Shown: positions 6,548-55,517 of the stretch, piece after piece
Layout of the letters: each line of letters starts with the position of its first letter
How positions within the stretch are numbered: position 1 is the stretch's first letter
Source of the DNA: Flavobacteriaceae bacterium UBA3478
GTDB taxonomy: Bacteria; Bacteroidota; Bacteroidia; Flavobacteriales; Flavobacteriaceae
Reading direction: 5' to 3'
NCBI GenBank assembly: GCA_002381155.1
Contig: DFQX01000087.1
Location: 1,435 to 65,434 of the forward strand
DNA length: 64,000 bases
Program-made: the position numbers and the translations under genes
The notes under the pieces: generated by a model
Told to the model about the DNA's origin: nothing
Database searches by the model: none
Seen by the model: the letters and a program-made list of their open reading frames with translations, nothing else

Positions 6548-8032
6548 TTAACTGAACGCGTCACGATTAGGTAAGGTGTGCTTACTCAGCACCCGTTTAG
6601 CATCAGAAACAACTGCAATTTCTTTTTGAAGACGGTAAAGCTTTTCACTGGCTTCTTTTCTCGCCTGATCTAAATCTACGATAGGGTTTGGATAATCGAT
6701 CCCCTTTCTGAAGTCGTAAAAGATCTCATCCATCGGAGTAAGCGCTGCAGGATTATGAACGAAAGCTTGAGGCAAGTTAGCTAGTTCAGGGACCCACTTT
6801 AAAATGAAAACTGCATCTGGATCGTGCTTCACACTATTCGATAATGGGCTATAAATTCTAATCTGGTTAATCCCTGTTTCGCCTGCTTGCATTTGTAGTT
6901 GCGGATAATGAATTCCAGGTTCAAAATCTAAAAACTGTCGCGCCAAATGTGGACTAATCACTTGCCAAGGTAGCCAAAGATGGTGAGTAGCAAAAGAAAC
7001 TAGAAGTGCACGCATTCTAAAATTAAGATATCCTGTTGCGTTGAGGCATCGCATCGCCGCATCTACAAGTGGCACCCCGGTTAACCCTTTTTCCCAAGCT
7101 TCTAAAAAAATGGTGTTTACTGGCTTGTTCAAGGTGAGATATCCTCGGTTTACCGGCTCGAACTCTATGCGATCTTCCATCTCAAATTTTTGAATAAAAT
7201 GAGCCTGCCAGCGGAGCCTTGATCGAAATGACGATAACGATCTTTTCGGCTTGGCATCCCCATACACCCTTCCCGTAGCTTTAAACACCTCTTTAACAGA
7301 TAAACATCCAAAGGCGATATATGGAGATAGTCTACTGCAGCTAATTCGAGAATCTAACGGCTTAGAAATATGTTTATTATAATTTTTGTAGCGCTCGTTT
7401 AAAAAGCTGTTTAAATAGCGCAACCCCATATTTCTTCCGCCCTTTTGGCGATCGATAGACCGGTCTTCAGGCAGTGTTAATAGGTTCATTTCATTCTCTA
7501 CTTGAGAAAGCATCGTGCTGCTAACGACAGATTTTTTTGACCATAATGGATGTGATATCGAAGATTCCATGAAAGCCTCCCACCGATCTCTCCAACCCAA
7601 TCGATGTTTGAGACCACGCTCTACCCCATTCGTGTTGAACTCTAGCCATGGGATATTTTCTTGTGCTAGTATCCTGGAGAACCTTTTGTCTCGATCGAAA
7701 GTGATTTTTAAACCCGTTTCTCGATAACTATAAACACTAGTTATTTCAAAGGTTTCGCTGAGCCGAATGAAGTTATCTGAAACTGAGCCATACATCTGTA
7801 ACACACGAGCATCCACCGATTGTAAAAAACCATCAAAGTCTTTCAAACTCTCAGAAATGAAGTGCCAGTGTCTTGCGCTATAGTGTTTATCACTGAGCAA
7901 TATCGGTTCGAAATTATACCAAAAAATTACAGGATAGCCCGAATCAATAGCCGCTGAAATCGGCTCGTGATCTTCCCAACGCAAATCACGTTTTAACCAA
8001 ACTAAAGCAACCTTTGGTCTGTTCTTTCTCAT
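6548..8032 (-). CDS. Cryptochrome/photolyase family protein (FAD-binding)
   Basis: N-terminal VWLKRDLRWEDHEPI (photolyase alpha/beta domain). C-terminal TGVPLVDAAMRCLNATGYLNFRMR (FAD-binding-7 signature). Confidence 0.8.
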   Translation of the reverse strand: MRKNRPKVALVWLKRDLRWEDHEPISAAIDSGYPVIFWYNFEPILLSDKHYSARHWHFISESLKDFDGFLQSVDARVLQMYGSVSDNFIRLSETFEITSVYSYRETGLKITFDRDKRFSRILAQENIPWLEFNTNGVERGLKHRLGWRDRWEAFMESSISHPLWSKKSVVSSTMLSQVENEMNLLTLPEDRSIDRQKGGRNMGLRYLNSFLNERYKNYNKHISKPLDSRISCSRLSPYIAFGCLSVKEVFKATGRVYGDAKPKRSLSSFRSRLRWQAHFIQKFEMEDRIEFEPVNRGYLTLNKPVNTIFLEAWEKGLTGVPLVDAAMRCLNATGYLNFRMRALLVSFATHHLWLPWQVISPHLARQFLDFEPGIHYPQLQMQAGETGINQIRIYSPLSNSVKHDPDAVFILKWVPELANLPQAFVHNPAALTPMDEIFYDFRKGIDYPNPIVDLDQARKEASEKLYRLQKEIAVVSDAKRVLSKHTLPNRDAFS

Positions 8033-8049
8033 AGCTAGTCTAAAGATAA

Positions 8050-8065
8050 TGTAACATAGGTTACT
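8050..8065. promoter_or_regulatory. Candidate Crp/Fnr-type operator TGTAACATAGGTTACT, upstream of the regulator-sulP operon
   Basis: A 16-bp near-palindrome lying 21 nt upstream of a TACCTTTG -7 box. It is one of four related sites in the cluster. Confidence 0.55.
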
Positions 8066-8086
8066 AATAAGGATGTTCGCTAATGC

Positions 8087-8094
8087 TACCTTTG
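8087..8094 (+). promoter_or_regulatory. Bacteroidota -7 promoter box TACCTTTG (regulator-sulP)
   Basis: Matches TAnnTTTG. A second match, TATTTTTG, lies at 8115-8122. Confidence 0.45.
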
Positions 8095-8147
8095 AACCAC
8101 TTTTGATTTTAACCTATTTTTGAAAGAACACCTATTCAATAGATAAC

Positions 8148-8780
8148 ATGCTTACCGATCTTCAATCTGTTTATGGATCACTTCTTGAAGCCTCTCTACT
8201 TCAAGAGATCAACCAAGTGGGCACCTACAGACAAATACAGGCAGGAACCGAGATCATCAGACCGGGAGAGTATATTAAAAGTATTCCCCTTTTAATCTCA
8301 GGAGCCATTAAAGTAATTCGTGAGTATGACGACGGAGAAGAACTTCTTCTTTACTATGTCGAAGAAGGAAATACTTGTTCCATGTCTATGGCCTGCTGCA
8401 CCGAACAAAAAAGAAGTACCATTAAAGCGATGGCTGAAGTTGACACTCTTTTAATCGTGATTCCTAATCAAAAATTAGAGGAGTGGATAGGTAGATATCC
8501 GAGATGGAGAAGTTTCATCTTTGCGAGTTATCAAAATCGCCTCGAAGAGATGCTATCTAGTCTTGAGAAAGTAGCGTTTGAACGATTAGATGAGAGACTT
8601 ATTGAGTACCTTAAAGAAAAAGGGAGAATCAATGGTGAAAACAGTATTCACCAAACTCATAAAGAAATCGCAGATGAGCTTCATAGTTCTCGAGTGGTAA
8701 TCTCGAGGTTACTTAAAAAATTAGAGAACCTTGGTCATATAAAGCTGCATAGAAACCATATTGAACTTCTTGATCTTTAA
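8148..8780 (+). CDS. Crp/Fnr family transcriptional regulator
   Basis: 210 aa with a beta-roll effector domain followed by a C-terminal HTH (THKEIADELHSSRVVISRLLKKLENLG). It heads the sulfide oxidation cluster. Confidence 0.8.
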   Translation: MLTDLQSVYGSLLEASLLQEINQVGTYRQIQAGTEIIRPGEYIKSIPLLISGAIKVIREYDDGEELLLYYVEEGNTCSMSMACCTEQKRSTIKAMAEVDTLLIVIPNQKLEEWIGRYPRWRSFIFASYQNRLEEMLSSLEKVAFERLDERLIEYLKEKGRINGENSIHQTHKEIADELHSSRVVISRLLKKLENLGHIKLHRNHIELLDL

Positions 8781-8783
8781 GTA

Positions 8784-10517
8784 ATGAAATCTTTCCTTCA
8801 GTTTATTCCAATCCTTCAATGGTTGCCTAATTATAAAAAAGCACATCTTTCAGGTGATCTATCGGCAGGATTAACTGTGGGAATTATGCTTATTCCGCAA
8901 GGAATGGCTTACGCCATGCTCGCCGGTCTACCTCCGGTTTTTGGTTTATATGCCTCTTTGATTCCACAAGTAATCTATGCACTCCTAGGAACTTCTAGAC
9001 AGCTTAGCGTAGCTCCTGTGGCAATGGATTCACTACTAGTAGCAGCGGGCTTAGGAGCGCTTTCACTTAGTGGAATTGAAGAATACACTTCAATGGCTAT
9101 TTTTCTTGCCCTTTTCATGGGAAGTATTCAGTTCTTGCTAGGTATCGTAAAGATGGGATTTTTGGTGAATTTCTTATCAAAACCTGTTATTAGTGGGTTT
9201 ACCTCTGCAGCTGCCTTAATCATCGGGCTTAGCCAATTAAAGCATTTACTAGGAGCGCCTATAGAAAACAGTAATCAAATTCATATTCTATTAGGGAACA
9301 CCGTTGAAGTACTCGATCAGATCAATATCTATGCTATCGTCCTGGGCGTTGCGGCTATTCTAATTATTAAAGCAATCAAGAGATGGGCTCCTAAGATTCC
9401 AGCAGCTTTAGTAGTAACTATCCTTGGAATTGTGATCACCTATGCTTTCAACCTCAGCGAATATGGACTTAATATCGTTAAGGTGGTTCCTTCAGGTCTA
9501 CCAAAGGTTGGGCTGCCAGAATTATCTTTGGATCGCTTAAACGATCTAACTCCTATAGCAGTTACTCTAGCACTTATCGCATTTATGGAGGCCATTTCAG
9601 TAGCAAAGGCAATAGAAGAACGTAAGGGACTTCAAGAGGTGAGGCCGAATCAAGAACTTATCGCGATCGGTATGGCCAATATAGTAGGGTCTATTTTTCA
9701 ATCGTACCCTGTCACTGGAGGATTCTCGAGAACCGCAGTAAACGACCAAGCTGGTGCATCTACACCGCTTTCCTCGATTATTAGTGCGATAATTGTTGGG
9801 CTAACGCTACTATTCTTAACTCCACTTTTTTATCATCTACCCAAAACGGTACTTGCCGCCATTATCATGGTAGCTGTTTTCGGGCTGATTGATTTTGCCT
9901 ACCCTGTTCGACTCCTTAGAAAAAGAAAGGACGAATTTGCTATACTCGTAATTACTTTTCTGACTACGCTAACTATTGGTATTACTGAAGGTATCATCCT
10001 AGGGGTATTAATCTCACTAGGCTTAATGATTTATAGAACATCACAACCTCACTATGCAATTCTAGGAAGGATAAAGGACTCTACCCATTATCGAAATGTG
10101 AAACGATTTGACAAAGAGGTTAGCATCGACCCAGAAGTGCTTTTCTTTCGATTCGATGGCCAATTATATTTCGGAAATAAGGATTATTTCAAAACTGAGC
10201 TTACTCAGGCAGTGGAGTCACATGGCAGCGAATTAAAAGGAATTGTTTTATCGGTAGAGGCGATTAATTATATCGACTCCACTGCTGCTCACATGTTAAG
10301 ACAACTTTTCAGCCAGTTCGAAGAAAGAGGAATTAAGGTTACCATATCAGGACCTATCGGGCCGATTAGAGACATTCTAAAAAGAAGTGAAATCGTTGAT
10401 CTAATAGGAAAGCAGTCCTTCTTTGATAATGCACACGACGCCTTTTTATTTATTAAAGGAGATGAGAATAAAATCGATGAGTATTCTAGAAGAATAGCCT
10501 TAGAATCAAAAGAATAG
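8784..10517 (+). CDS. SulP family inorganic anion transporter with C-terminal STAS domain
   Basis: N-terminal LSGDLSAGLTVGIMLIPQGMAYAMLAGLPP is the SulP signature. A C-terminal STAS-like domain is present (FRFDGQLYFGN...INYIDSTAAHML). Confidence 0.9.
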   Translation: MKSFLQFIPILQWLPNYKKAHLSGDLSAGLTVGIMLIPQGMAYAMLAGLPPVFGLYASLIPQVIYALLGTSRQLSVAPVAMDSLLVAAGLGALSLSGIEEYTSMAIFLALFMGSIQFLLGIVKMGFLVNFLSKPVISGFTSAAALIIGLSQLKHLLGAPIENSNQIHILLGNTVEVLDQINIYAIVLGVAAILIIKAIKRWAPKIPAALVVTILGIVITYAFNLSEYGLNIVKVVPSGLPKVGLPELSLDRLNDLTPIAVTLALIAFMEAISVAKAIEERKGLQEVRPNQELIAIGMANIVGSIFQSYPVTGGFSRTAVNDQAGASTPLSSIISAIIVGLTLLFLTPLFYHLPKTVLAAIIMVAVFGLIDFAYPVRLLRKRKDEFAILVITFLTTLTIGITEGIILGVLISLGLMIYRTSQPHYAILGRIKDSTHYRNVKRFDKEVSIDPEVLFFRFDGQLYFGNKDYFKTELTQAVESHGSELKGIVLSVEAINYIDSTAAHMLRQLFSQFEERGIKVTISGPIGPIRDILKRSEIVDLIGKQSFFDNAHDAFLFIKGDENKIDEYSRRIALESKE

Positions 10518-10522
10518 ACTTT

Positions 10523-10538
10523 TGTAACTTAGGTAACT
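10523..10538. promoter_or_regulatory. Candidate Crp/Fnr-type operator TGTAACTTAGGTAACT, upstream of the PDO-rhodanese gene
   Basis: Same motif, 21 nt upstream of the TAACTTTG -7 box. Confidence 0.5.
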
Positions 10539-10559
10539 CTGCATTAAAAATACTGCTGT

Positions 10560-10567
10560 TAACTTTG
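10560..10567 (+). promoter_or_regulatory. -7 box TAACTTTG (PDO-rhodanese)
   Basis: Matches TAnnTTTG, 21 nt before the ATG at 10589. Confidence 0.45.
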
Positions 10568-10588
10568 ACCTACTTAAAAGTACGCGAC

Positions 10589-12007
10589 ATGAAAATAGAA
10601 CAAATTTATACCGGATGTTTAGCTCAAGGAGCTTACTACATTGAAAGCCAGGGAGAGGTAGCTATTATCGATCCTTTAAGAGAAGTGAAACCTTATCTAG
10701 AAAAGGCTAAAGAGGCTAATGCTAAAATTAAGTACATTTTTGAAACTCACTTTCACGCAGACTTCGTGAGTGGACACTTAAGTTTAGCCAAAGAATCAGG
10801 TGCGCCAATTATTTATGGACCGAATGCCAACCCTAGTTTTGATGCCATTATCGCTAAAGATGGTCAAGAATTCAAGTTAGGAGAAGTTACCATCGTCGTG
10901 CTTCACACACCGGGTCACACCATGGAGTCTACTACCTATTTACTGAGAGATGCTAACGGTAAAGATCATGCTATTTTTAGTGGAGATACATTATTCTTAG
11001 GAGATGTTGGACGCCCTGACTTAGCTCAAAAAGCAGCTGATATGACGCAAGAACAATTAGCTGAGACACTTTTTGATAGCTTGAGAACTAAGATCATGCC
11101 TCTTTCAGATGAAATCACTGTTTATCCTGGTCATGGAGCTGGCTCAGCTTGTGGTAAGAACATGATGAAAGAGACCGTTGACACCTTGGGGAATCAGAAA
11201 AAAATGAATTATGCACTTCGTGTAGATATGACTAAGGCAGAGTTTGTAAAAGAAGTTACCGACGGTCTAATGCCTCCACCTCAATACTTCCCATTAAATG
11301 TGAAGATGAATAAGGAAGGATACGATCACTTCGACGAAGTCTTAGAAAGAGGTTCGACTCCTTTAAGCCCCGAGGCTTTTGAGGATGTTGCTAATCAAAC
11401 TGGCGCATTGGTTATAGATGTTCGTCATCAAGATGATTTCGTAAAAGGACACATCCCACGCTCTATTTTCATCGGTTTAGACGGTAGTTTTGCCCCATGG
11501 GTAGGAGCCCTAATTGCTGATGTCGAGCAACCCTTATTACTGGTTACTCCAGAGGGGCGCGAAGAAGAGACTATTACTCGTTTAGCACGTGTAGGTTTCG
11601 ATAATACTCTAGGGTACCTAGAAGGAAGTTTCAAGTCTTGGAAAAATGCAGGTAGAGAATTCGACACCATTGATACCATTTCTGCTGAGGACTTAAAGTC
11701 AAAACTAACATCTAACGACACTGAAGTTTTCGATGTTCGTAAGGATACAGAGTTCTATGCACACCGTATACCTAATGCCAAGAATACCCCACTAGATTAC
11801 CTCAACGACCACTTGGGTGAATTTCCTGAAAACAAGTCGTTCTTCATCCACTGTGCTGGAGGATACCGTTCGGTAATTGCAGGATCGATTCTAAAGAGCA
11901 GAGGGATCCATAACTTCGTTGATATTACCGGTGGATTTAAAGCAATAGAAGCAGCTGAAATAAAGTTGACAGACTATGTGTGTCCGTCAACGATGCCTTC
12001 GAAATAA
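10589..12007 (+). CDS. Persulfide dioxygenase (MBL fold) fused to two rhodanese domains
   Basis: MBL motif THFHADF plus HTPGHT. The C-terminal rhodanese active-site loop is HCAGGYRS. The middle rhodanese-like domain lacks the Cys. The ATG at 10589 is preferred over the TTG at 10565. Confidence 0.8.
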   Translation: MKIEQIYTGCLAQGAYYIESQGEVAIIDPLREVKPYLEKAKEANAKIKYIFETHFHADFVSGHLSLAKESGAPIIYGPNANPSFDAIIAKDGQEFKLGEVTIVVLHTPGHTMESTTYLLRDANGKDHAIFSGDTLFLGDVGRPDLAQKAADMTQEQLAETLFDSLRTKIMPLSDEITVYPGHGAGSACGKNMMKETVDTLGNQKKMNYALRVDMTKAEFVKEVTDGLMPPPQYFPLNVKMNKEGYDHFDEVLERGSTPLSPEAFEDVANQTGALVIDVRHQDDFVKGHIPRSIFIGLDGSFAPWVGALIADVEQPLLLVTPEGREEETITRLARVGFDNTLGYLEGSFKSWKNAGREFDTIDTISAEDLKSKLTSNDTEVFDVRKDTEFYAHRIPNAKNTPLDYLNDHLGEFPENKSFFIHCAGGYRSVIAGSILKSRGIHNFVDITGGFKAIEAAEIKLTDYVCPSTMPSK

Positions 12008-12030
12008 ACCTAATAATTTCAAGTTTACTG

Positions 12031-12061
12031 CCCTGTGTAACTTTGGTTGCACAGGGTTTTT
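12031..12061 (+). terminator. Intrinsic terminator after the PDO-rhodanese gene
   Basis: Stem CCCTGTG (12031-12037) pairs with CACAGGG (12050-12056), followed by TTTTT. Confidence 0.6.
12036..12051. promoter_or_regulatory. Candidate Crp/Fnr-type operator TGTAACTTTGGTTGCA, upstream of sqr (embedded in the terminator hairpin)
   Basis: Same motif, 21 nt upstream of a TAGCTTTT -7-like box. Confidence 0.4.
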
Positions 12062-12072
12062 CATTTTATCAC

Positions 12073-12080
12073 TAGCTTTT
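12073..12080 (+). promoter_or_regulatory. -7-like box TAGCTTTT (sqr), imperfect
   Basis: 7 of 8 informative positions match TAnnTTTG. Confidence 0.3.
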
Positions 12081-12109
12081 ATCTCAACTTTAACTAAACG
12101 ATAAACACT

Positions 12110-13393
12110 ATGTCAACTTCTTATCAAGTTCTAATTATTGGGGGAGGTACTGCTGGTATCATGGCAGCATCTCGTTTACAGAAATTAGATTCATCACTCT
12201 CAATCGCCATCATTGAGCCTGCCGACACTCACTATTACCAACCCGCGTGGACTTTAGTTGGTGCTGGAGCTTTTGATTATAAAAAAACTGCTAAACCTAT
12301 GGCAGAGGTAATACCAAAAGGCATTTCGTGGGTGAAAGACTTTGCGGTTTCATTCGATCCTGATAACAACGCTGTGAGAACGAAAGAAAGTGGTGACATC
12401 TCCTATGACTACTTAATTGTAGCTCCAGGGCTTGTTATGGAACCTAGTATGATTAAAGGCTTACCTGAAGCTCTTGATAAAGGGGTTGTTTGCAGTAACT
12501 ACACCGATCCAGAGCACACCTGGAAATTGTTACAAAACTTCAAGGGAGGTAATGCGATTTTTACTCAGCCAGCGACACCCATCAAATGTGGTGGTGCTCC
12601 ACAGAAAATTGCTTATCTGGCAGCAGATTATTTGAAAAAGCAAGGACTATCTAAGAAATCTAATGTCATGTTTGCTACCCCGGGTACCGTAATTTTTGGT
12701 GTACCGGTAATCAGAGAAACTTTAATGAAGGTCATTGGCAAATACAATATTAAGTTTCATCCGTACAATACGCCCGTAGAAATCGATTCAAAGAAAAAAA
12801 TCGCTTATTTCCTTGATAAGACTCCAGAAGATCACGCTTGTTTTGTTCAAAAAGAAGGAAGCTCCTTCGGTACAGATAATGTGTTCGGCGCAACAAAAAC
12901 TGAAGATGGTAGAATTGCGGTACCATTCGACTTTCTCCATATTGCTCCACCTCAAGCAGCACCAAAATTTATTAGAGAGTCGGCCCTATCCAATGATGGG
13001 GGCTGGTTGAGCGTTGATAAGCACACCCTACAGCACACCAAGTATGCTAACGTATTTGGATTAGGTGATGTAGCCGGGTTACCGACGGCAAAAACAGGAG
13101 CTGCAATTCGCAAGCAAGTTCCTGTAGTATTAGACAACATCTTACGTTTAATCAAATCAAATACTATCGGTTCTAAATCTTATAATGGCTACTCATCTTG
13201 TCCGTTGGTTACAGGGTACGGTAAGATGGTACTTGCAGAATTTGATTACGACAACAACTTTACTCCAGATCCAAAACTCAAACAAATGCTTGTATTCGAT
13301 TCTTCGAAAGAACATTGGAGATTATGGATGTTGAAAAAGTTCGGACTTCCCTATCTATATTGGAATAAAATGCTAAAAGGAGAAGACGTATAA
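12110..13393 (+). CDS. sqr: Sulfide:quinone oxidoreductase, type II (SQRDL-like)
   Basis: FAD motif IIGGGTAG. HYYQPAWTLVGAG, KCGGAPQK and YSSCPLVTGYGKMVLAEFDY match the redox-Cys regions of type II/mitochondrial-type SQR as I recall them. Confidence 0.85.
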   Translation: MSTSYQVLIIGGGTAGIMAASRLQKLDSSLSIAIIEPADTHYYQPAWTLVGAGAFDYKKTAKPMAEVIPKGISWVKDFAVSFDPDNNAVRTKESGDISYDYLIVAPGLVMEPSMIKGLPEALDKGVVCSNYTDPEHTWKLLQNFKGGNAIFTQPATPIKCGGAPQKIAYLAADYLKKQGLSKKSNVMFATPGTVIFGVPVIRETLMKVIGKYNIKFHPYNTPVEIDSKKKIAYFLDKTPEDHACFVQKEGSSFGTDNVFGATKTEDGRIAVPFDFLHIAPPQAAPKFIRESALSNDGGWLSVDKHTLQHTKYANVFGLGDVAGLPTAKTGAAIRKQVPVVLDNILRLIKSNTIGSKSYNGYSSCPLVTGYGKMVLAEFDYDNNFTPDPKLKQMLVFDSSKEHWRLWMLKKFGLPYLYWNKMLKGEDV

Positions 13394-48185: not shown

Positions 48186-48219
48186 AAAAAAAGCCCGCAC
48201 CAATGGTGCGGGCTTTTTT
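48186..48219. terminator. Bidirectional intrinsic terminator between nrdA and the convergent oxidoreductase operon
   Basis: A7-GCCCGCACC-AAT-GGTGCGGGC-T6: a perfect 9-bp GC-rich stem flanked by an A-run and a T-run. Confidence 0.85.
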
Positions 48220-48239: not shown

Positions 48240-48815
48240 TTATTCAGACCAAGCTTTACCGCCGGTAAGCGTCTGTAAATCATCACAAGCGATAAACTCA
48301 CCAGGTACTGGTAAATAAGCAAGAACATTCTCTCCGATATACTCAGAACCTTTGTAAGCGCTGATGGTCATACTTCTTAAATCTCCAGCAAACGCATAAG
48401 CATCTGAAGAAATAGACTCATCTCTATCACCGAATAAGGTAGTAAAGCTATCTACAAGATTTGCTTCACTAACAGCAGCAAGAGAACTAGCTCCTGTAGA
48501 TTCAGTGACAAAGCTTGAGAAAGCGGTTAATTGACTCTTAACTCGTTCTTGAGCCTCAGCGTCATAACATTCAGCGATTAGCTTATCGATGAACACATGA
48601 ACATTCACTTCAGAAGCTGAAGGAGTATCTGTAGCCGGCAAAATCACATCGATTGCCTTTACTAAAAATGAACCTTCTTCACTTGAGAAGAATTGTGGTG
48701 CCCATGCTAATCCGTCTGAAGAGCTACAACTCTGCAGAATGGATAATACCGTAGGAGTAGCAACGGCAAAACCGAAAGCTTTTCCTAAATTCTTAAGTGC
48801 GTCTCTTCTTTCCAT
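48240..48815 (-). CDS. Gluconate 2-dehydrogenase subunit 3-like protein with Tat signal
   Basis: N-terminal MERRDALKNLG twin-arginine-type signal. It is translationally coupled (TAATG) to the upstream GMC oxidoreductase. Confidence 0.65.
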   Translation of the reverse strand: MERRDALKNLGKAFGFAVATPTVLSILQSCSSSDGLAWAPQFFSSEEGSFLVKAIDVILPATDTPSASEVNVHVFIDKLIAECYDAEAQERVKSQLTAFSSFVTESTGASSLAAVSEANLVDSFTTLFGDRDESISSDAYAFAGDLRSMTISAYKGSEYIGENVLAYLPVPGEFIACDDLQTLTGGKAWSE

Positions 48816-50533
48816 TAGATATTTCCGTTTTTAAGTTCTTGAACTGCATGATTAGCTGCACGTGCTGTAAACGCCATGTAAGTAAGCGATGGGTTTACAC
48901 AGTTTGCTGAAGTCATGAAAGAACCGTCAGTTACATAAACATTTTTACAAGCGTGTACTTGGTTGTACCCGTTAAGTACCGAAGTCTTAGGATCACGTCC
49001 CATACGAGCGGTACCCATTTCGTGAATACCCAGACCGATTGCGTAGCTTCCGTTAAAAGAGTAGATATCCTTAGCCCCTGCTTTCTCCAGCATTTGTTCG
49101 GCTTGATCTCGCATATCTTTACGCATTGCGATCTCATTCTCTTTAATAGTAGCGTTAAAAGTCGGTGTTGGTAATCCCCACTGGTCTAGCTTATCGTAGT
49201 CTAGGGTAAAACGGTTATCCTCATAAGGTAGAATTTCACCGAATCCGTAGAAGGTTGCACTCCACTGACCAGGTCCTAGGATGTTCTCCTTAAGTTGTGG
49301 CCCAAACTTAGCTTCAGCAATTAGATCATTATAATTACTTCTGCTAGCTCCACCCTGATATCCGTAAAGACCTTTAAAATCTTTACGATTGGTAGACCCA
49401 CCAATATTTCTAAATGAAGGCACATACCAACCAGCAACCTTACGGCCTTTGTAGTATTTATCTTCTAAGCCTTCCATAATACCTACAGCACCAACATTTA
49501 AGTGGTGGTCCATGATATTACGTCCAAGCTGGTCGCTATCGTTTCCTAGTCCATTAGGGAAACGATCTGAACGCGACTGCATAAGAATCGAAGTTGACGC
49601 AATGGCAGAAGCACATAAGAATACAACTTTAGCCTTGAATTCAAACTCTTCTTTAGTTACACGATCGATTACTTTAACACCAGTGGCCTTTTGAGTATCC
49701 GCATCGTAAATCACCTCGGTAACGATAGAATCAGGACGAAGGGTTAGGTTTCCTGTGCGTTCAGCAACCGGAAGTGTTGACGAAAGACTGCTGAAGTATG
49801 ACCCGAAAGGACACCCTCTGATGCAGCGGTTTCTGTATTGACAACGAATACGTCCGTCACCATCAAATTGTTTATCACTGGTGATGTGTGCCACACGACC
49901 TGGTGTAAGTACACGTCCATCAAAATGCTCAGCAACTTTATCTTTGATTTTCTCCTCAGCACAGTTAAATGGCATAGGAGGCTCAAATTCACTATCAGGT
50001 AATTGAGTTAATCCTAACGACTCACCAGAAACCCCAATAAACTTCTCAACATGAGAATACCATGGGGCAATGTCCTTGTATCGAACTGGCCAATCAACAG
50101 CAACTCCATTACGAGCATTTGATTCAAAACTGATATCACTCCAACGATAAGAATGTCTTCCCCACATGATTGAACGTCCACCAACGTGGTATCCACGCAT
50201 CCAGTCAAAACGCTCGGTTTCATTATAAGGATGATCAACATCATCTACAAACCAGTGCGAAGAAGATTTACGTGTGGTGTACCCCGTACGTGACTGCTTT
50301 TGCTGTCTCGCGGCCTCTTCAACCGTTTGACGATCACCATTAGGCAGGTCCCATTTGTCAAGGTTAGCCGTCGGATAATCTTCGCGGTGTTTTTTCATAG
50401 GTCCTCTTTCGAGAACTAAGGTCTTCAAGCCATTTTCGCATAATTCCTTTGCCGCCCAGCCACCGCTAATACCGGTACCAACGACAATCGCGTCATACGA
50501 TTCTTGCTCTTCGTTGAAATAAAATTTACTCAT
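48815..50533 (-). CDS. GMC family FAD-dependent oxidoreductase
   Basis: FAD motif AIVVGTGISGG and the C-terminal GMC region HEMGTARMG. The ATG at 50533 is preferred over the GTG at 50557. Confidence 0.85.
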   Translation of the reverse strand: MSKFYFNEEQESYDAIVVGTGISGGWAAKELCENGLKTLVLERGPMKKHREDYPTANLDKWDLPNGDRQTVEEAARQQKQSRTGYTTRKSSSHWFVDDVDHPYNETERFDWMRGYHVGGRSIMWGRHSYRWSDISFESNARNGVAVDWPVRYKDIAPWYSHVEKFIGVSGESLGLTQLPDSEFEPPMPFNCAEEKIKDKVAEHFDGRVLTPGRVAHITSDKQFDGDGRIRCQYRNRCIRGCPFGSYFSSLSSTLPVAERTGNLTLRPDSIVTEVIYDADTQKATGVKVIDRVTKEEFEFKAKVVFLCASAIASTSILMQSRSDRFPNGLGNDSDQLGRNIMDHHLNVGAVGIMEGLEDKYYKGRKVAGWYVPSFRNIGGSTNRKDFKGLYGYQGGASRSNYNDLIAEAKFGPQLKENILGPGQWSATFYGFGEILPYEDNRFTLDYDKLDQWGLPTPTFNATIKENEIAMRKDMRDQAEQMLEKAGAKDIYSFNGSYAIGLGIHEMGTARMGRDPKTSVLNGYNQVHACKNVYVTDGSFMTSANCVNPSLTYMAFTARAANHAVQELKNGNI

Positions 50534-50661
50534 CGTTGTCAATAGTTTAGTTGGCACAATTTAGAGAAACCAATGATATTTTTCTACATTTAGTGGCCTT
50601 TTGAGGCAAACTTTAACAACATAACAACTACACAACACTAATCCTTACACAATAATCAATT

Positions 50662-51888
50662 ATGAAAACAAGCACACGTATTCAACTCTCGTTTATGATG
50701 TTCCTAGAATTTTTTATCTGGGGTGGCTGGTTTGTAACTATGGGTATCTTCTTACCGAGCACTTTAGGAGCAACAGGATCAGAAAGTGCTATGGCCTATT
50801 CTACACAAAGTTGGGGGGCAATTATTGCTCCGTTTATTATCGGTCTTATCGCCGATCGATATTTCAATGCTGAGAGAATTCTGGGGGTGCTTCACCTTGT
50901 GGGAGCATTTTTAATGTATCAAATGTCGATAGCAGAGAACTTTGCGGTGTTCTACCCCTATGTATTGGGTTACATGATTGCTTATATGCCAACTCTGGCT
51001 CTAGTAAATTCTGTTTCCTTTAACCAGATGACTAACCCTGCAAAAGAGTTTTCTCCAATCCGTGTTTTCGGTACGATCGGATGGATCCTTGCCGGATTAA
51101 TCATCAGCTTTGTTTTCAAATGGGATGCCCCTGAATCAGTCGCGCAGGGAGCGCTTAGAAATACTTTCCTAATGACTGGTGTGGCATCAGCAATCTTAGG
51201 GTTATTCAGCTTTACACTTCCAAAAACACCTCCTACAGCTAAAAAAGGTGCAGTGACGGTTAGCGATATTTTAGGACTCGATGCCCTAAGCCTTTTGAAG
51301 GACAGAAACTTTTTAGTATTCTTTTTATCGTCAGTACTTATTTGTATTCCGTTGGCATTCTACTATCAGCACGCCGCACAATTCTTGGGTGAAATTGAAG
51401 TAGCCAACCCAGCGGGTAAAATGACTATCGGACAAATCTCAGAAGTTCTTTTCATGCTTCTTTTACCGGTATTTTTCACCCGTTTCGGATTCAAGAAAAC
51501 GATTCTAGTAGGTATGGCTGCTTGGGCAGTTCGTTATTTCCTATTCTCCATCGGAAATGCGGATGACGGAGTTTTCTTATTACTTATCGGTATCGCCCTG
51601 CACGGCATTTGTTACGATTTCTTCTTCGTATCCGGCCAAATTTATACGGATACCAAAGCAGGTGATAGTGTAAAGAGTGCAGCTCAGGGTCTAATCACTC
51701 TAGCCACTTATGGTGTGGGTATGCTCGTTGGATTCTGGATCGCAGGACAAATCACTGACAGCTACGCTCTTAGCAATGGTGGTCACGACTGGAAGCAAAT
51801 TTGGGTTCTTCCTGCCCTATTCGCTATTGGGGTATTTGTCTTATTTGCGGTATTTTTCCGTTCTGAAAAAGTTGAATACAAATCATAA
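50662..51888 (+). CDS. MFS transporter, nucleoside:H+ symporter (NHS; NupG/XapB-like) family
   Basis: N-terminal LSFMMFLEFFIWGGWFVTMG closely parallels the NupG/XapB N-terminus. About 12 TM segments. Confidence 0.75.
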   Translation: MKTSTRIQLSFMMFLEFFIWGGWFVTMGIFLPSTLGATGSESAMAYSTQSWGAIIAPFIIGLIADRYFNAERILGVLHLVGAFLMYQMSIAENFAVFYPYVLGYMIAYMPTLALVNSVSFNQMTNPAKEFSPIRVFGTIGWILAGLIISFVFKWDAPESVAQGALRNTFLMTGVASAILGLFSFTLPKTPPTAKKGAVTVSDILGLDALSLLKDRNFLVFFLSSVLICIPLAFYYQHAAQFLGEIEVANPAGKMTIGQISEVLFMLLLPVFFTRFGFKKTILVGMAAWAVRYFLFSIGNADDGVFLLLIGIALHGICYDFFFVSGQIYTDTKAGDSVKSAAQGLITLATYGVGMLVGFWIAGQITDSYALSNGGHDWKQIWVLPALFAIGVFVLFAVFFRSEKVEYKS

Positions 51889-51890
51889 TT

Positions 51891-53036
51891 ATGCCGAAGA
51901 AAATCAAACTTGGAATATTAGGTGGCGGAGGTGACTCCCTAATCGGAATCGTTCACCGAATTGCAGCGTTCATGAATGATAATTACGAAATTGTCGGAGG
52001 GGTTTTCAATCCAGACAAAAACGTAAGTATCGAATTTGCAAAGCATATTGATATTCCGACCAATCGCATATACGCGACTGTTGAAGAGTTAGTTGCTGCA
52101 GAAAATGAACTGCCCGAAGAGGAGCGCATGCAAGTGGTTAGTATCCTTACCCCTAACTTTCTTCATTTTCCAATGGCTAAAACGCTTCTTGAAAATGGAT
52201 TCAATGTGATCTGTGAGAAGCCGATGACTACCTCCTACGAAGAGGCAAAAGAAATCGCTGCACTTCAAGAAAAAGGTGGAGCGGTATTCGCACTTACACA
52301 CACCTACACCGGCTATCCGATGGTACGTCAGATGAGAGAAATGATTCGCTCAGGTGCCATTGGAGACATTCATAAAGTAGATGTTCAGTACTACCAGGGG
52401 TGGATCAATCCACTCATTCACGACGAAGCTTCAAGAAAAGCTACCTGGAGATTAGATCCTGAAAAATCAGGAATCTCATGTTGTGTTGGGGATATCGGAG
52501 TTCACGCCTTTAACCTTGTAGAATACACCACAGGTCTTGAAATAAAAGAAGTATTGAGCGACTTCAATTTCTTATACGATGACAACGTAATGGATGTTGA
52601 TGCAAATATTCTCGTTCGCCTTGACAAACACGTAAAAGGAATAGTTCGTTCGAGCCAAATCGCTACCGCTGAAGAAAACAATATTGTTCTTTCCATCTAT
52701 GGAAAAGAAGGTGGCTTAAAATGGGAACAAGAGAACCCTAATTATCTATACCTGCTTAAAGAAGGGCAACCGATGCAAGTTCTGAAACCAGGACATGGAT
52801 ATAACAGCCAGTTCTCATTAGAGGGCACCAAAGTACCTCCAGGACACCCTGAAGGCCTTTTCGATGCAATGGCTAATATTTACCTAGGAGTTGCGAAAGC
52901 GGTTCGTGGAGAAACCTACCATGACGGGGCATTCCCAACAGTGACCGATGGTCTTCGTGGAATGAACTTCATTGAAGCCACCGTTGAATCGAATGCGAAA
53001 GGAAATGTTTGGGTCGCTTTAGACTCTCAACAATAA
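51891..53036 (+). CDS. Gfo/Idh/MocA family oxidoreductase
   Basis: N-terminal Rossmann KLGILGGGGDSLIG and the EKP motif (ICEKPMT). Confidence 0.85.
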   Translation: MPKKIKLGILGGGGDSLIGIVHRIAAFMNDNYEIVGGVFNPDKNVSIEFAKHIDIPTNRIYATVEELVAAENELPEEERMQVVSILTPNFLHFPMAKTLLENGFNVICEKPMTTSYEEAKEIAALQEKGGAVFALTHTYTGYPMVRQMREMIRSGAIGDIHKVDVQYYQGWINPLIHDEASRKATWRLDPEKSGISCCVGDIGVHAFNLVEYTTGLEIKEVLSDFNFLYDDNVMDVDANILVRLDKHVKGIVRSSQIATAEENNIVLSIYGKEGGLKWEQENPNYLYLLKEGQPMQVLKPGHGYNSQFSLEGTKVPPGHPEGLFDAMANIYLGVAKAVRGETYHDGAFPTVTDGLRGMNFIEATVESNAKGNVWVALDSQQ

Positions 53037-53046
53037 TAACAACGCT

Positions 53047-54099
53047 ATGAAAACGATTAAAGGACCTGCGGTATTTCTAGCGCAGTTTATCGACAGTAAG
53101 CCTCCATTTAATTCCCTAGAAGGGCTATGTCAATGGGCAGCAGACTTAGGATATAAAGGAATTCAAATCCCAACTTGGGAATCTTTCTTAATTGACTTAG
53201 ACAAGGCGGCCGAAAGCCAAGACTATTGTGACGAGCTCAAAGGAAGGATCGCCTCATTCGGATTAGAAATCACCGAACTATCGACACACCTTCAAGGTCA
53301 GTTAGTAGCAGTACATCCGGCCTATGACATAATGTTCGATAATTTTGCACCTGATGCCGTAAAAAACAATCCAAAGGCAAGAACAGAATGGGCGGTTGAC
53401 ACGGTAAAAAAAGCAGCTACAGCAAGTAGACGTTTAGGACTTAATGCACATGCAACCTTTTCAGGTTCGCTATTATGGCACACCATGCACCCTTGGCCTC
53501 AACGCCCTGAAGGACTAGTTGAAATGGGCTTCGAAGAATTAGCTAAAAGATGGATGCCTATTTTGAATCACTTCGACAAAGAAGGAGTTGATGTCTGTTA
53601 CGAAGTGCACCCAGGAGAAGATATCCACGATGGGGACACCTTCGAACGCTTCCTCGAAGCAACCGGTAATCATAAACGCGTAAATATTCTTTACGACCCG
53701 AGTCACTTTGTCCTTCAACAGCTTGATTATATCGAATATATCGATCATTACCACGAATTCATCAAGGCCTTTCATGTGAAAGACTCAGAGTTTAATCCGA
53801 CCGGAAAAAAAGGAGCCTTCGGGGGATACAATGATTGGTCTAATCGAGCGGGGCGCTACAGATCTCCGGGTGATGGTCAAGTAGACTTTAAAACCATTTT
53901 CTCAAAACTAACGCAATACGGATGTGACCTTTGGGCTGTAATGGAATGGGAATGTTGTATCAAGAGCCCTGAACAAGGTGCTAGAGAAGGTGCTACATTT
54001 ATCAAAAATCACATCATTGAAGCCACCGAAAAAACCTTTGACGATTTTGCAGGAGGCGATGTCAATAAAGACGAACTTAAAAAGATTCTAGGACTATGA
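53047..54099 (+). CDS. Sugar phosphate isomerase/epimerase (xylose isomerase-like TIM barrel) family protein
   Basis: The length and the E/H/D metal-ligand pattern (CYEVHPGED, DPSHF, MEWE) are typical of AP-endonuclease-2/xylose-isomerase-like TIM barrels. Confidence 0.75.
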   Translation: MKTIKGPAVFLAQFIDSKPPFNSLEGLCQWAADLGYKGIQIPTWESFLIDLDKAAESQDYCDELKGRIASFGLEITELSTHLQGQLVAVHPAYDIMFDNFAPDAVKNNPKARTEWAVDTVKKAATASRRLGLNAHATFSGSLLWHTMHPWPQRPEGLVEMGFEELAKRWMPILNHFDKEGVDVCYEVHPGEDIHDGDTFERFLEATGNHKRVNILYDPSHFVLQQLDYIEYIDHYHEFIKAFHVKDSEFNPTGKKGAFGGYNDWSNRAGRYRSPGDGQVDFKTIFSKLTQYGCDLWAVMEWECCIKSPEQGAREGATFIKNHIIEATEKTFDDFAGGDVNKDELKKILGL

Positions 54100-55517
54100 A
54101 AGCATCAGCTTTAATTGCACTTGGAGCCCTTATTGTAGGCTGTGCAAACCCCGCTCAGAAAGGCACTGAAACAACCGCTCAAGAAAAGGATTGGGAGGTA
54201 CTTTTCGATGGTACTTCAACAGATAAATGGAAGCAATACAATGGAGACACCATGTCAGAGGCATGGAAGATTGAAGATGGGGCACTCGTTTTTTATCCAC
54301 CCAAAGAAGGATCTCAATGGGGAAAAGGTCACAATATTGTTACCAAAGAAAACTACCACAGCTTTGAGCTAGTGCTTGAATACAAGGTAGCAGAAGGAGC
54401 AAATAGTGGAATTTTCTGGGGTATTATAGAAGACGAACGTCTTCCCGAACCTTACTTAAGTGGACCAGAAATTCAGGTCTTAGATAATGAAAGACATCCA
54501 GATGCCAAAGCGGGCCTTACTCACCAAGCTGGTGCGCTTTACGATATGGTTGCACCCTCGAAGGATGTAACACTGCCTGCCGGTGAGTGGAATACGATGT
54601 CGATCACTATTGACTACTTTGATAATCAAGGTATCGTGACACAAAATGGCGAAGAAATCGTAAACTTCCCAGTACATGGTGAAGGATGGAATGAGCTTGT
54701 TGCCAATTCTAAATTTGCCGATTGGGCTGCTTTCGGAAAGTATCGTACCGGTAAAATTGGGCTTCAAGATCACGGAGACGTGGTTGCCTATCGAAATATT
54801 AAAATTAGAAGAATAAACGCTCCAAATATGGAACAAGAACCTACTACTCCAGAAGCGACTGAATTATACGAGCCGGTACCTCCAAAGGTAACACCTGGTG
54901 TTAACGGTGGTGCTCCTAGCGATGCAATTGTCTTATTTGATGGTACCTCATTCGACGCATGGGAAAGTGCTAATGGTAGTGAGGCTCCATGGATTTTAAA
55001 TGAAGACGGAAGCATGACCGTGGCCGATCGTACGGGTGACATCAGAACCAAAGAAGTTTTTGGAAGCGTTCAACTACATATAGAATGGAGATCTCCGGCA
55101 GACGTACGTGGATCTAACCAGTCACGTGCGAATAGCGGTGTATTTCTGCAAGAGAGGTACGAGGTTCAAGTGCTAGACAACAATGATAATCCGACCTACG
55201 TAAATGGTCAGGTGGGTTCTATTTACAAACAAGCGATTCCTTTAGCAATGGCTTCAGTGCCTTCAGGAGAATGGAATACCTACGATATTATTTTTCATTC
55301 CCCAGAGTTTGACGAGGCAGGAAACCGAACCAAAGCGGGTACGCTAACGGTAATACATAACGGAATCCTTATTCAAAACCATTACGAGCTAAAAGGAACG
55401 ACCGAATATATCGGATGGCCAAAAAATACTCCGCACGGACCAGGACCACTCAGACTTCAAGATCACGGTGATAACTCTGGCGTTAGCTACAGAAACATTT
55501 GGGTTAGACCTCTTTAA
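54096..55517 (+). CDS. Tandem DUF1080 (3-keto-disaccharide hydrolase-like) lipoprotein
   Basis: Lipobox LIVGC. Two repeats each end in a ...LQDHG....YRNI.(I/V)R motif (IGLQDHGDVVAYRNIKIR; LRLQDHGDNSGVSYRNIWVR). Confidence 0.75.
   Translation: MKASALIALGALIVGCANPAQKGTETTAQEKDWEVLFDGTSTDKWKQYNGDTMSEAWKIEDGALVFYPPKEGSQWGKGHNIVTKENYHSFELVLEYKVAEGANSGIFWGIIEDERLPEPYLSGPEIQVLDNERHPDAKAGLTHQAGALYDMVAPSKDVTLPAGEWNTMSITIDYFDNQGIVTQNGEEIVNFPVHGEGWNELVANSKFADWAAFGKYRTGKIGLQDHGDVVAYRNIKIRRINAPNMEQEPTTPEATELYEPVPPKVTPGVNGGAPSDAIVLFDGTSFDAWESANGSEAPWILNEDGSMTVADRTGDIRTKEVFGSVQLHIEWRSPADVRGSNQSRANSGVFLQERYEVQVLDNNDNPTYVNGQVGSIYKQAIPLAMASVPSGEWNTYDIIFHSPEFDEAGNRTKAGTLTVIHNGILIQNHYELKGTTEYIGWPKNTPHGPGPLRLQDHGDNSGVSYRNIWVRPL

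Follow-up and report, generated by a model that had tools for sequence, protein, structure and literature searches.

What does a bacterium do with a flavoprotein oxidase, a transporter, two sugar enzymes and an exported lipoprotein that are all encoded side by side? This question is raised by six tightly packed genes at positions 48240-55517 of a 64,000-nucleotide stretch of contig DFQX01000087.1 from Flavobacteriaceae bacterium UBA3478 (the whole stretch is called the window here). Flanked by nrdBA on one side and by yicC on the other, the genes form two divergent units. One unit encodes a GMC flavoprotein oxidoreductase and a small subunit, and the other encodes a transporter of the major facilitator superfamily (MFS), a Gfo/Idh/MocA oxidoreductase, a xylose-isomerase-like TIM-barrel protein and a lipoprotein with two DUF1080 modules. 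A preliminary description of the window had drawn this layout and had read it as an oxidative pathway in which glycosides are cleaved through 3-keto intermediates. Pfam searches confirmed all six open reading frames, their positions in the two units and the domains assigned to them (Table 1). As judged from sequence comparison with characterised enzymes, the cluster very probably encodes a compact, two-compartment route of oxidation, elimination, hydration and reduction that would release glucose from glucosides without a glycoside hydrolase. Small glucosides or disaccharides, in a broad range, are its probable physiological substrates.

A pathway with this logic has been worked out in Agrobacterium tumefaciens and Rhizobium sp. 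GIN611, whose operon encodes GlycDH together with a TAT-signal protein, the beta-eliminase AtOGE, the hydratase AtHYD and a Gfo oxidoreductase (Bitter et al. 2023, PMC10628242). In turn, these enzymes oxidise the substrate at C3, eliminate the aglycone, hydrate 2-hydroxy-3-keto-glucal and reduce 3-keto-glucose to glucose (PMC10628242). GlycDH oxidises O- and C-glucosides at C3 and requires its TAT partner protein, and the A. tumefaciens Gfo enzyme, combined with AtOGE and AtHYD, completes the conversion of 3-keto-phlorizin into glucose (Bitter et al. 2023, PMC10628242). The reference sequences of GlycDH, AtHYD and the Gfo enzyme were taken from the text of the 2023 supplement, which carries optical character recognition errors, so that the following identities are approximate and probably slight underestimates: the GMC protein of the window was 52% identical to GlycDH of Rhizobium sp. 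GIN611 (574 bits; residues 21-580, 560 amino acids), and its Gfo protein was 37% identical to the A. tumefaciens sequence labelled "Gfo Oxo" (380 amino acids, E 1e-79). The TIM-barrel protein matched PDB entry 8RO4, a 2-hydroxy-3-keto-glucal hydratase, with 65% identity and an E value of 5.6e-163 (residues 1-350 against 1-349); in sequence, 8RO4 corresponds to the A. tumefaciens AtHYD protein given in that supplement. The N-terminal DUF1080 module matched structures of the BT2157 type (8TDA, 9FBE, 8RR2 and 8V31) at about 1e-32. Collectively, these matches supported the oxidative 3-keto reading of the cluster. The proposed division between periplasm and cytoplasm held as well: export signals were present on the small subunit and the DUF1080 protein, signal peptides were absent from the GMC, Gfo and TIM-barrel translations, and the distribution agrees with that of the characterised enzymes.

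On the strength of its homology to GlycDH, the GMC protein is predicted to be the catalytic subunit of a GlycDH-type glycoside C3-dehydrogenase, with C3 regioselectivity as part of the prediction. It contains the GxGxxG motif for binding of flavin adenine dinucleotide (FAD) in the form VVGTGISGG, and a C-x5-C-x3-C-P motif, RCQYRNRCIRGCP, which aligns with CCGNNNCMPICP of fructose dehydrogenase (FDH) and with RCQFRNKCRLGCP of GlycDH. We take this cysteine-rich motif, in the GMC subfamily that includes FAD-dependent glucose dehydrogenase (FAD-GDH) and FDH, to be the site of a 3Fe-4S cluster through which electrons are passed on to the outside. The small subunit begins with MERRDALKNLG...LQSC, in which a twin-arginine motif (RRDALK) is followed by a hydrophobic stretch and then by a lipobox-like cysteine; a search of the PDB returned no solved homolog for it. 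The pair thus has the form found in the GlycDH subfamily, a signal-less catalytic subunit with a Tat-signal partner, and the small subunit is presumed to be a "hitchhiker" partner for Tat export of the GMC protein, possibly serving as a membrane anchor.

Among solved structures, the best matches of the GMC protein were the large subunits of FDH (1e-41, 144 bits) and FAD-GDH (1e-33). Together with the membership of the small subunit in Gluconate_2-dh3, these matches would suit a periplasmic dehydrogenase of the gluconate 2-, fructose or glucose dehydrogenase type that simply lies beside a separate cytoplasmic operon for sugar conversion. Such an accidental neighbourhood is very improbable, however, as the PDB matches (1e-41 to 1e-33) are far weaker than the match to GlycDH, no cytochrome c subunit accompanies the pair, and the linkage of the two units outlasts the reordering of their genes in three bacterial classes.

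The evidence for this linkage came from a scan of species-representative genomes with an alignment of AtHYD and its relative in the window. At least 597 loci encode a relative, and the best 80, in which the TIM-barrel protein is 81-97% identical to that of the window, were analysed. All of them are labelled as Flavobacteriaceae or as unclassified, except for one metagenome-assembled genome (MAG) labelled Alteromonas. A GMC gene was present in 74 of the 80 loci, a Gfo gene in 74, the small-subunit gene (adjoining the GMC gene) in 65, the MFS gene in 55 and yicC in 65, while a DUF1080 gene lay immediately 3' of the TIM-barrel gene in nearly all of them; absences fell mostly at contig ends. The TIM-barrel and Gfo genes occurred together in 74 of these 80 loci, sometimes with other genes between them; in the window, as in Pseudoalteromonas, Croceicoccus and Phyllobacterium, they directly adjoin each other. 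Since the arrangement is kept across 80 related loci, it lies far beyond chance. Outside the family, the gene order changes. The chromid of Pseudoalteromonas donghaensis carries an araC-type gene (AraC) followed by a single co-directional operon in the order Gfo, TIM barrel, MFS, DUF1080, GMC, small subunit and TIM barrel. Croceicoccus marinus has a partial set (Gfo, TIM barrel, small subunit, GMC), and Phyllobacterium has a LacI gene, the TIM-barrel and Gfo genes and an ABC transporter. Conservation of the neighbourhood, which the preliminary description had named as a check on the pathway, was therefore borne out by synteny in about 74 of the 80 Flavobacteriaceae loci and by rearranged versions in Pseudoalteromonas and Croceicoccus. 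Because the linkage survives rearrangement across three bacterial classes, the two divergent units very probably share one function.

The match of the TIM-barrel protein to 8RO4 was the decisive one. Strong homology makes this protein a cytoplasmic ortholog of AtHYD and a predicted 2-hydroxy-3-keto-glucal hydratase. The next PDB match after 8RO4 was much weaker (3e-44), and the search at E ≤ 0.01 returned only 8RO4, 2ZDS and 3CNY. Four candidate Mn2+ ligands (E186, D217, H243 and E300), whose assignment to a metal site is putative, are invariant between the window protein and 8RO4. The TIM-barrel protein had at first been likened to the DgpBC and CarBC enzymes, which break C-glycosidic bonds; this likeness was not upheld, since no such enzyme was matched at the same threshold and the protein fits the hydratase of the pathway instead. 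The same result bears on the idea of a dedicated C-glycoside deglycosylation with the logic of CarA/CarBC or DgpA/DgpBC. This idea gains something from the finding that GlycDH also oxidises the C-glycosides puerarin and nothofagin (Bitter et al. 2023, PMC10628242). Yet no C-glycoside-cleaving enzyme appeared among the PDB matches of the TIM-barrel protein at E ≤ 0.01, the cluster has no gene for a DgpB/CarC-like beta subunit, and the Gfo protein matched DgpA structures at only about 1e-8. A C-glycoside lyase was accordingly rejected as a reading of the TIM barrel, and a pathway devoted to C-glycosides is extremely unlikely.

The Gfo protein is presumed to be a cytoplasmic, NADH-dependent 3-keto-glucose reductase. 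Its best PDB match was 3V5N (1.2e-88). Against the NCBIfam models BT_2158 and BT_2159 it scored 28.7 and 20.3 bits (cut-offs, 750 and 650), and since it falls below these cut-offs and has no signal peptide, it is not a member of these periplasmic glycoside 3-dehydrogenase families. Its score against the LevoglcsnDh model was also low (83.6 bits; cut-off, 650). In the preliminary description, this protein had been called a cytoplasmic dehydrogenase. The location agrees with the missing signal peptide, but the enzyme most likely works reductively, from 3-keto-glucose to glucose.

The placement of the transporter among the NHS-family importers agreed with Pfam PF03825, but its score against the TIGR00889 model for nucleoside permeases was 364.4 bits, below the cut-off of 446.1, and it is therefore not a curated NHS nucleoside permease of the NupG/XapB kind. 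No homolog of the NHS type was found in the proteobacterial loci compared, where other MFS or ABC transporters occur. The protein is presumed to import the product of periplasmic cleavage. Scores of this kind also bear on a catabolic set for inositol (iol-like) or for nucleosides, in which the Gfo protein would be IolG-like, the TIM barrel an IolE-like dehydratase and the transporter an importer of nucleosides or inositol. The models myo_inos_iolG and myo_inos_iolE gave weak scores of 50.9 and 67 bits and TIGR00889 a stronger one of 364 bits; all three stayed below the curated cut-offs (355, 290 and 446 bits). Moreover, the characterised enzyme that the TIM-barrel protein resembles, with 65% identity, is a keto-glucal hydratase, and iolB, iolC and iolD as well as genes for nucleoside phosphorylases or hydrolases are absent from the cluster. 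An inositol or nucleoside set is thus hardly credible, and inositol, gluconate and nucleoside readings were all set aside on their curated-model scores.

The DUF1080 protein would supply the cleavage step. Its N-terminus, MKASALIALGALIVGC (...LIVGC), is a lipoprotein signal, and it is followed by an N-type module at about residues 26-245 and a C-type module at about residues 256-473, the latter with 4QHZ as its best match (3.8e-78). The related proteins AL2 and BT2 are lipoproteins (AL2 by prediction) that act as 3-keto-alpha-glucoside lyases and as keto-glucal hydratases, and the conserved channel residues of BT2 are E103, N134, E164, Q166, Y190, K245, Q273 and H275 (Nasseri et al., 10.1101/2024.03.25.586180). 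When these residues were mapped by motif rather than by alignment to BT2, and with K245 excluded, both modules of the window protein were found to contain E, N(SG), E-x-Q, Y and Q-D-H, arranged as expected. The protein is presumed to be a periplasmic 3-keto-glucoside 1,2-lyase/hydratase. It had been described earlier as a periplasmic hydrolase; the lipoprotein signal supports the compartment, whereas the work of Nasseri et al. replaces hydrolysis by lyase and hydratase chemistry. Separate adjacent genes encode the two module types in 44 related loci, in 29 only a single type is present, and the fusion in one open reading frame is confined to the window and its two nearest relatives. Because the modules are separate in 44 loci and fused in three, the double-module protein is best seen as a recent fusion of two old paralogs and not the outcome of a tandem duplication, which was rejected.

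Taken in order, the steps of the proposed route would run as follows. First, the signal-less GMC protein would ride to the periplasm on the Tat-signal small subunit. Second, as its strong homology to GlycDH suggests, it would oxidise the C3 hydroxyl of the glucosyl residue of a glycoside there, and the electrons would pass through the 3Fe-4S cluster to a periplasmic or membrane acceptor. Third, the DUF1080 lipoprotein would eliminate the aglycone from the 3-keto-glucoside to give 2-hydroxy-3-keto-glucal and, if it behaves like AL2 and BT2, may hydrate part of the glucal; exported TIM-barrel lyases resembling AL1, BT1 or AtOGE, whose genes lie outside the cluster, may contribute where beta-anomers are concerned. 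Fourth, the NHS-type transporter would import 2-hydroxy-3-keto-glucal, 3-keto-glucose or both, a cargo proposed because the operon provides no cytoplasmic enzymes besides the hydratase and the reductase. Finally, the AtHYD ortholog, with strong homology in its favour, would hydrate 2-hydroxy-3-keto-glucal to 3-keto-glucose, and the Gfo enzyme, as homology and conserved adjacency suggest, would reduce 3-keto-glucose to glucose with NADH.

The place of cleavage could be drawn differently. The transporter may import the glycoside or keto-glycoside itself, to be cleaved in the cytoplasm by an AtHYD-like protein that is also a lyase, with the Gfo protein cycling between oxidation and reduction as AL3 and BT3 do; the periplasmic DUF1080 protein would then serve other substrates. 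In the AL and BT systems, the TIM-barrel and DUF1080 enzymes do combine lyase and hydratase activities and AL3/BT3 do oxidise and reduce, and some proteobacterial loci, such as that of Phyllobacterium, consist of TIM-barrel, Gfo and transporter genes without GMC or DUF1080 genes. However, AtHYD is inactive on 3-keto-phlorizin (Bitter et al. 2023, PMC10628242), the GMC and DUF1080 genes have been kept in the locus together with their export signals, and the Gfo protein of the window is far from the BT_2158 and BT_2159 families, as the scores given above indicate. Cytoplasmic cleavage therefore seems unlikely.

Several observations weigh against the two-compartment route with periplasmic cleavage. 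Nucleosides are what the family of its transporter is known for, and no citable precedent was found for the cargo proposed here. The cluster encodes no eliminase TIM barrel homologous to AtOGE; only distant ones, exported and encoded on other contigs, were found. The C-type DUF1080 module is without a characterised close relative, since its best match, 4QHZ, comes from structural genomics. A DUF1080 protein that already hydrates the glucal in the periplasm would leave it unexplained why a second hydratase is needed in the cytoplasm. The Gfo protein is only 37% identical to the characterised reductase, and the errors in the supplement text that make the identities approximate count here as well. 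Lastly, an electron acceptor is missing from view: the cluster contains no gene for a cytochrome c or an azurin, and the azurin motif C[STA]FPGH is absent from the host MAG, which is 86.6% complete. This motif was present in 11 of the 80 related loci, and azurin was rejected as a general component of the system.

Compared to the known systems, the cluster combines features of more than one. With the Agrobacterium/GIN611 operon it shares a GMC protein with a Tat partner, the AtHYD-type hydratase, a Gfo reductase encoded beside the hydratase, and the four-step logic. Unlike that operon, it lacks an AtOGE-type eliminase and a regulator, and it has the double-module DUF1080 lipoprotein and the NHS-type transporter. 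The BT2156-BT2160 locus of Bacteroides thetaiotaomicron and the AL1-AL5 locus of Alistipes (Liu et al. 2021, PMC8121099; Nasseri et al., 10.1101/2024.03.25.586180) resemble it in the exported DUF1080 lipoprotein, whose active-site signature is present in both modules of the window protein, and in the periplasmic setting of oxidation and cleavage. They differ from it as follows: their oxidase is a Tat-exported Gfo protein with tightly bound NAD, whereas that of the window is a GMC protein of respiratory type, and their TIM barrel is an exported lyase of the AL1/BT1 type, whereas that of the window is of the cytoplasmic AtHYD type.

GMC-type oxidation has been linked to DUF1080 genes before. In the description given by Liu et al. 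(2021, PMC8121099), the LacABC 3-dehydrogenase of Caulobacter crescentus is of GMC type and cytochrome c-dependent and clusters with homologs of BT2156-BT2159, and growth on disaccharides and glycosides depends on homologs in the Caulobacter cluster and on those in the Bacteroidota Pedobacter and Echinicola. Compared by this description only, LacABC is like the window system in being a periplasmic GMC-type 3-dehydrogenase linked to DUF1080, TIM-barrel and Gfo homologs, and unlike it in its dependence on cytochrome c, for which the window cluster has no gene. Fructose dehydrogenase (7W2J) and the FAD-glucose dehydrogenase of Burkholderia (6A2U) likewise have a GMC subunit, the cysteine-rich motif and a small Tat-signal subunit, but they use free fructose or glucose, carry a multihaem cytochrome c and have low similarity to the window GMC protein. 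The levoglucosan (Lgd) pathway of Bacillus smithii, as cited in Bitter et al. (2023), follows the same order of steps with Gfo and TIM-barrel enzymes; by that account it is entirely cytoplasmic and has neither a GMC nor a DUF1080 protein, unlike the two-compartment window system, which has both. The preliminary description had regarded the substrate of this combination of genes as not established. As to the kind of pathway this goes too far, for clusters of GMC with DUF1080, TIM-barrel and Gfo genes have been published; as to the Flavobacteriaceae it stands, as a literature search found no paper describing the locus of this family or its substrate.

The features of the locus are collected in Table 1. 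The host genome is a small marine MAG of 1.62 Mb in 108 contigs, and the nearest named relative is a MAG labelled "Flavobacteriaceae bacterium" (97% identity in the TIM-barrel protein). The strong terminator-like hairpin, which sits between nrdA and the 3' end of the unit for the GMC protein and its small subunit, is the left boundary of the cluster. Within that unit, the GMC stop and the small-subunit start overlap by one nucleotide (TAATG). On the plus strand, the MFS and Gfo genes are separated by 2 nucleotides and the Gfo and TIM-barrel genes by 10, and the TIM-barrel and DUF1080 genes overlap by 4 (ATGA). Translation of the GMC gene likely starts at an internal ATG near 50533 (MSKFYF...) and not at 50557, because the GMC1 protein of Maribacter begins with MSKFYYNEEQESYDAIVV, and the region between the two units would then be about 128 base pairs long. 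Three blocks of this region, ATAGTTTAGTT, ATTTTTCTACATTTAG and AAACTTTA, are kept in the closest relatives (L003 and L008). The blocks include a box, TACATTTA, that resembles the -7 element of Bacteroidota with one mismatch. The CA-rich octamers and repeats that directly precede the MFS start do not recur in the closest relatives and were rejected as a functional element. No gene for a regulator lies within the cluster.

Table 1. Features of the predicted glycoside-cleavage locus; positions are those of the window
Feature	Position	Strand	Evidence or remark
Palindromic terminator-like hairpin	48187..48219	.	15-pair stem, 8 GC pairs, A/T runs on both sides
Small subunit, 191 aa	48240-48815	-	Gluconate_2-dh3 PF13618, 8.8e-23
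GMC oxidoreductase	48815-50557	-	GMC_oxred_N/C, 7.8e-13 and 1.8e-21
Divergent control region	50534..50661	.	promoter role inferred only
NHS-family MFS transporter, 408 aa	50662-51888	+	Nuc_H_symport PF03825, 2e-113
Gfo/Idh/MocA oxidoreductase	51891-53036	+	GFO_IDH_MocA with C-terminal domains (Pfam)
Xylose-isomerase-like TIM barrel	53047-54099	+	AP_endonuc_2, 6.4e-40
Two-module DUF1080 lipoprotein, 473 aa	54096-55517	+	3keto-disac_hyd PF06439, 2.3e-85, two stretches

Related genes occur elsewhere in the same genome. Contig C53 carries, at 6882-9558 on the minus strand (locus L001), a gene for a 445-residue Gfo protein followed by two separate DUF1080 genes. This Gfo protein scored 265.8 bits against the BT_2158_fam model named "glycoside 3-dehydrogenase", below the cut-off of 750, and the locus looks to be of the Bacteroides AL/BT type, which would give the genome a second set of genes for oxidative glycoside cleavage. 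Beside it, at 9683-13080, lie genes for a GH20 hexosaminidase and for a NagB/PIG-L fusion protein; such neighbours hint at a glycoside of an amino sugar as substrate. On contig C108 (locus L002, 7954-10657, minus strand), a second GMC protein of 647 residues, 32% identical to that of the window, is encoded with a Gluconate_2-dh3 protein of 250 residues; the pair adjoins a PHO4-family transporter, lies near an SSF symporter and is without TIM-barrel, Gfo or DUF1080 partners. Two further xylose-isomerase-like TIM barrels bear export signals: one on contig C15 (53503-54426, plus strand) has a lipoprotein signal, and one on contig C28 (1531-2484, minus strand) has a Tat signal and adjoins an MFS sugar porter (XylE/GlcP-like). 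Their best PDB matches were 8TCD, 8TCS and 8TCT (down to 5e-39), which, judging from the accession series and the names, are presumably the beta-lyases AL1/BT1 described by Nasseri et al.; AtOGE (8BVK) was matched as well. These exported proteins are candidate 3-keto-beta-glucoside lyases that could act in trans.

Larger genomes hold larger versions of the locus, and by comparison with these the window cluster is a minimal form. In Maribacter sedimenticola (L018, 77-12646), the locus is expanded by two additional exported TIM barrels (Tat or lipoprotein signal), a DinB gene, an ASCH gene and a second GMC gene. The TIM barrel with the Tat signal resembles hydroxypyruvate or 2-oxo-tetronate isomerases, and the second GMC protein is 66% identical to the first and has no small subunit of its own. 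The MAG labelled "uncultured Alteromonas sp." contains a locus of the Flavobacteriaceae type (L081) that includes yicC, with identities to the window of 82% for the TIM-barrel, 68% for the GMC and 71% for the MFS protein; this contig was probably mis-binned.

Of 300 genomes sampled from the family, 162 encoded the AtHYD ortholog, among them several of 1.2-1.9 Mb, and of 301 drawn from the phylum as a whole, 60 did. Orthologs from Flavobacteriaceae and from Alpha- and Gammaproteobacteria (loci L083-L085) are 65-69% identical to each other, and orthologs were also found on 368 plasmid or chromid records from Phaeobacter, Pantoea, Pseudosulfitobacter, Paracoccus and others. This unusually high conservation between phyla could reflect either strong constraint or horizontal transfer.

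Every part of the cluster falls into a known protein family, and the pathway has been published. This copy is set apart by the minimum of six genes, the fused DUF1080 modules, the NHS-type transporter, and the lack of an eliminase TIM barrel, of a regulator and of a gene for an electron acceptor. A further reading of these particulars, which is possible but rather doubtful, is that in marine Flavobacteriaceae the cluster serves as a near-core "generalist glucosidase substitute" without a regulator, that it has recruited an NHS-type transporter, and that the electrons of periplasmic sugar oxidation reach the respiratory chain by way of an acceptor other than a dedicated cytochrome c. In that case, the transporter may import the oxidised sugar (2-hydroxy-3-keto-glucal or 3-keto-glucose), and the two anciently diverged DUF1080 modules may share the work, dividing either alpha- and beta-anomers or the roles of lyase and hydratase between them.

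Only in recent years has the oxidative, non-Koshland cleavage of glycosides been elucidated, first in Agrobacterium and gut Bacteroidales. The cluster in the window is a hybrid of the two, in which a GMC oxidase, hydratase and reductase of the Agrobacterium type would act with a DUF1080 lyase of the Bacteroides type, and its synteny extends over much of the Flavobacteriaceae, streamlined marine genomes included. It raises two questions, namely the cargo of the transporter and the identity of the electron acceptor, and it offers a minimal six-gene set for biochemical reconstitution. For the family, its conservation suggests a quantitatively relevant marine route by which glucose may be obtained from diverse small glycosides without dedicated glycoside hydrolases, and surveys of marine carbon cycling that are based on carbohydrate-active enzymes (CAZymes) would miss this oxidative route.

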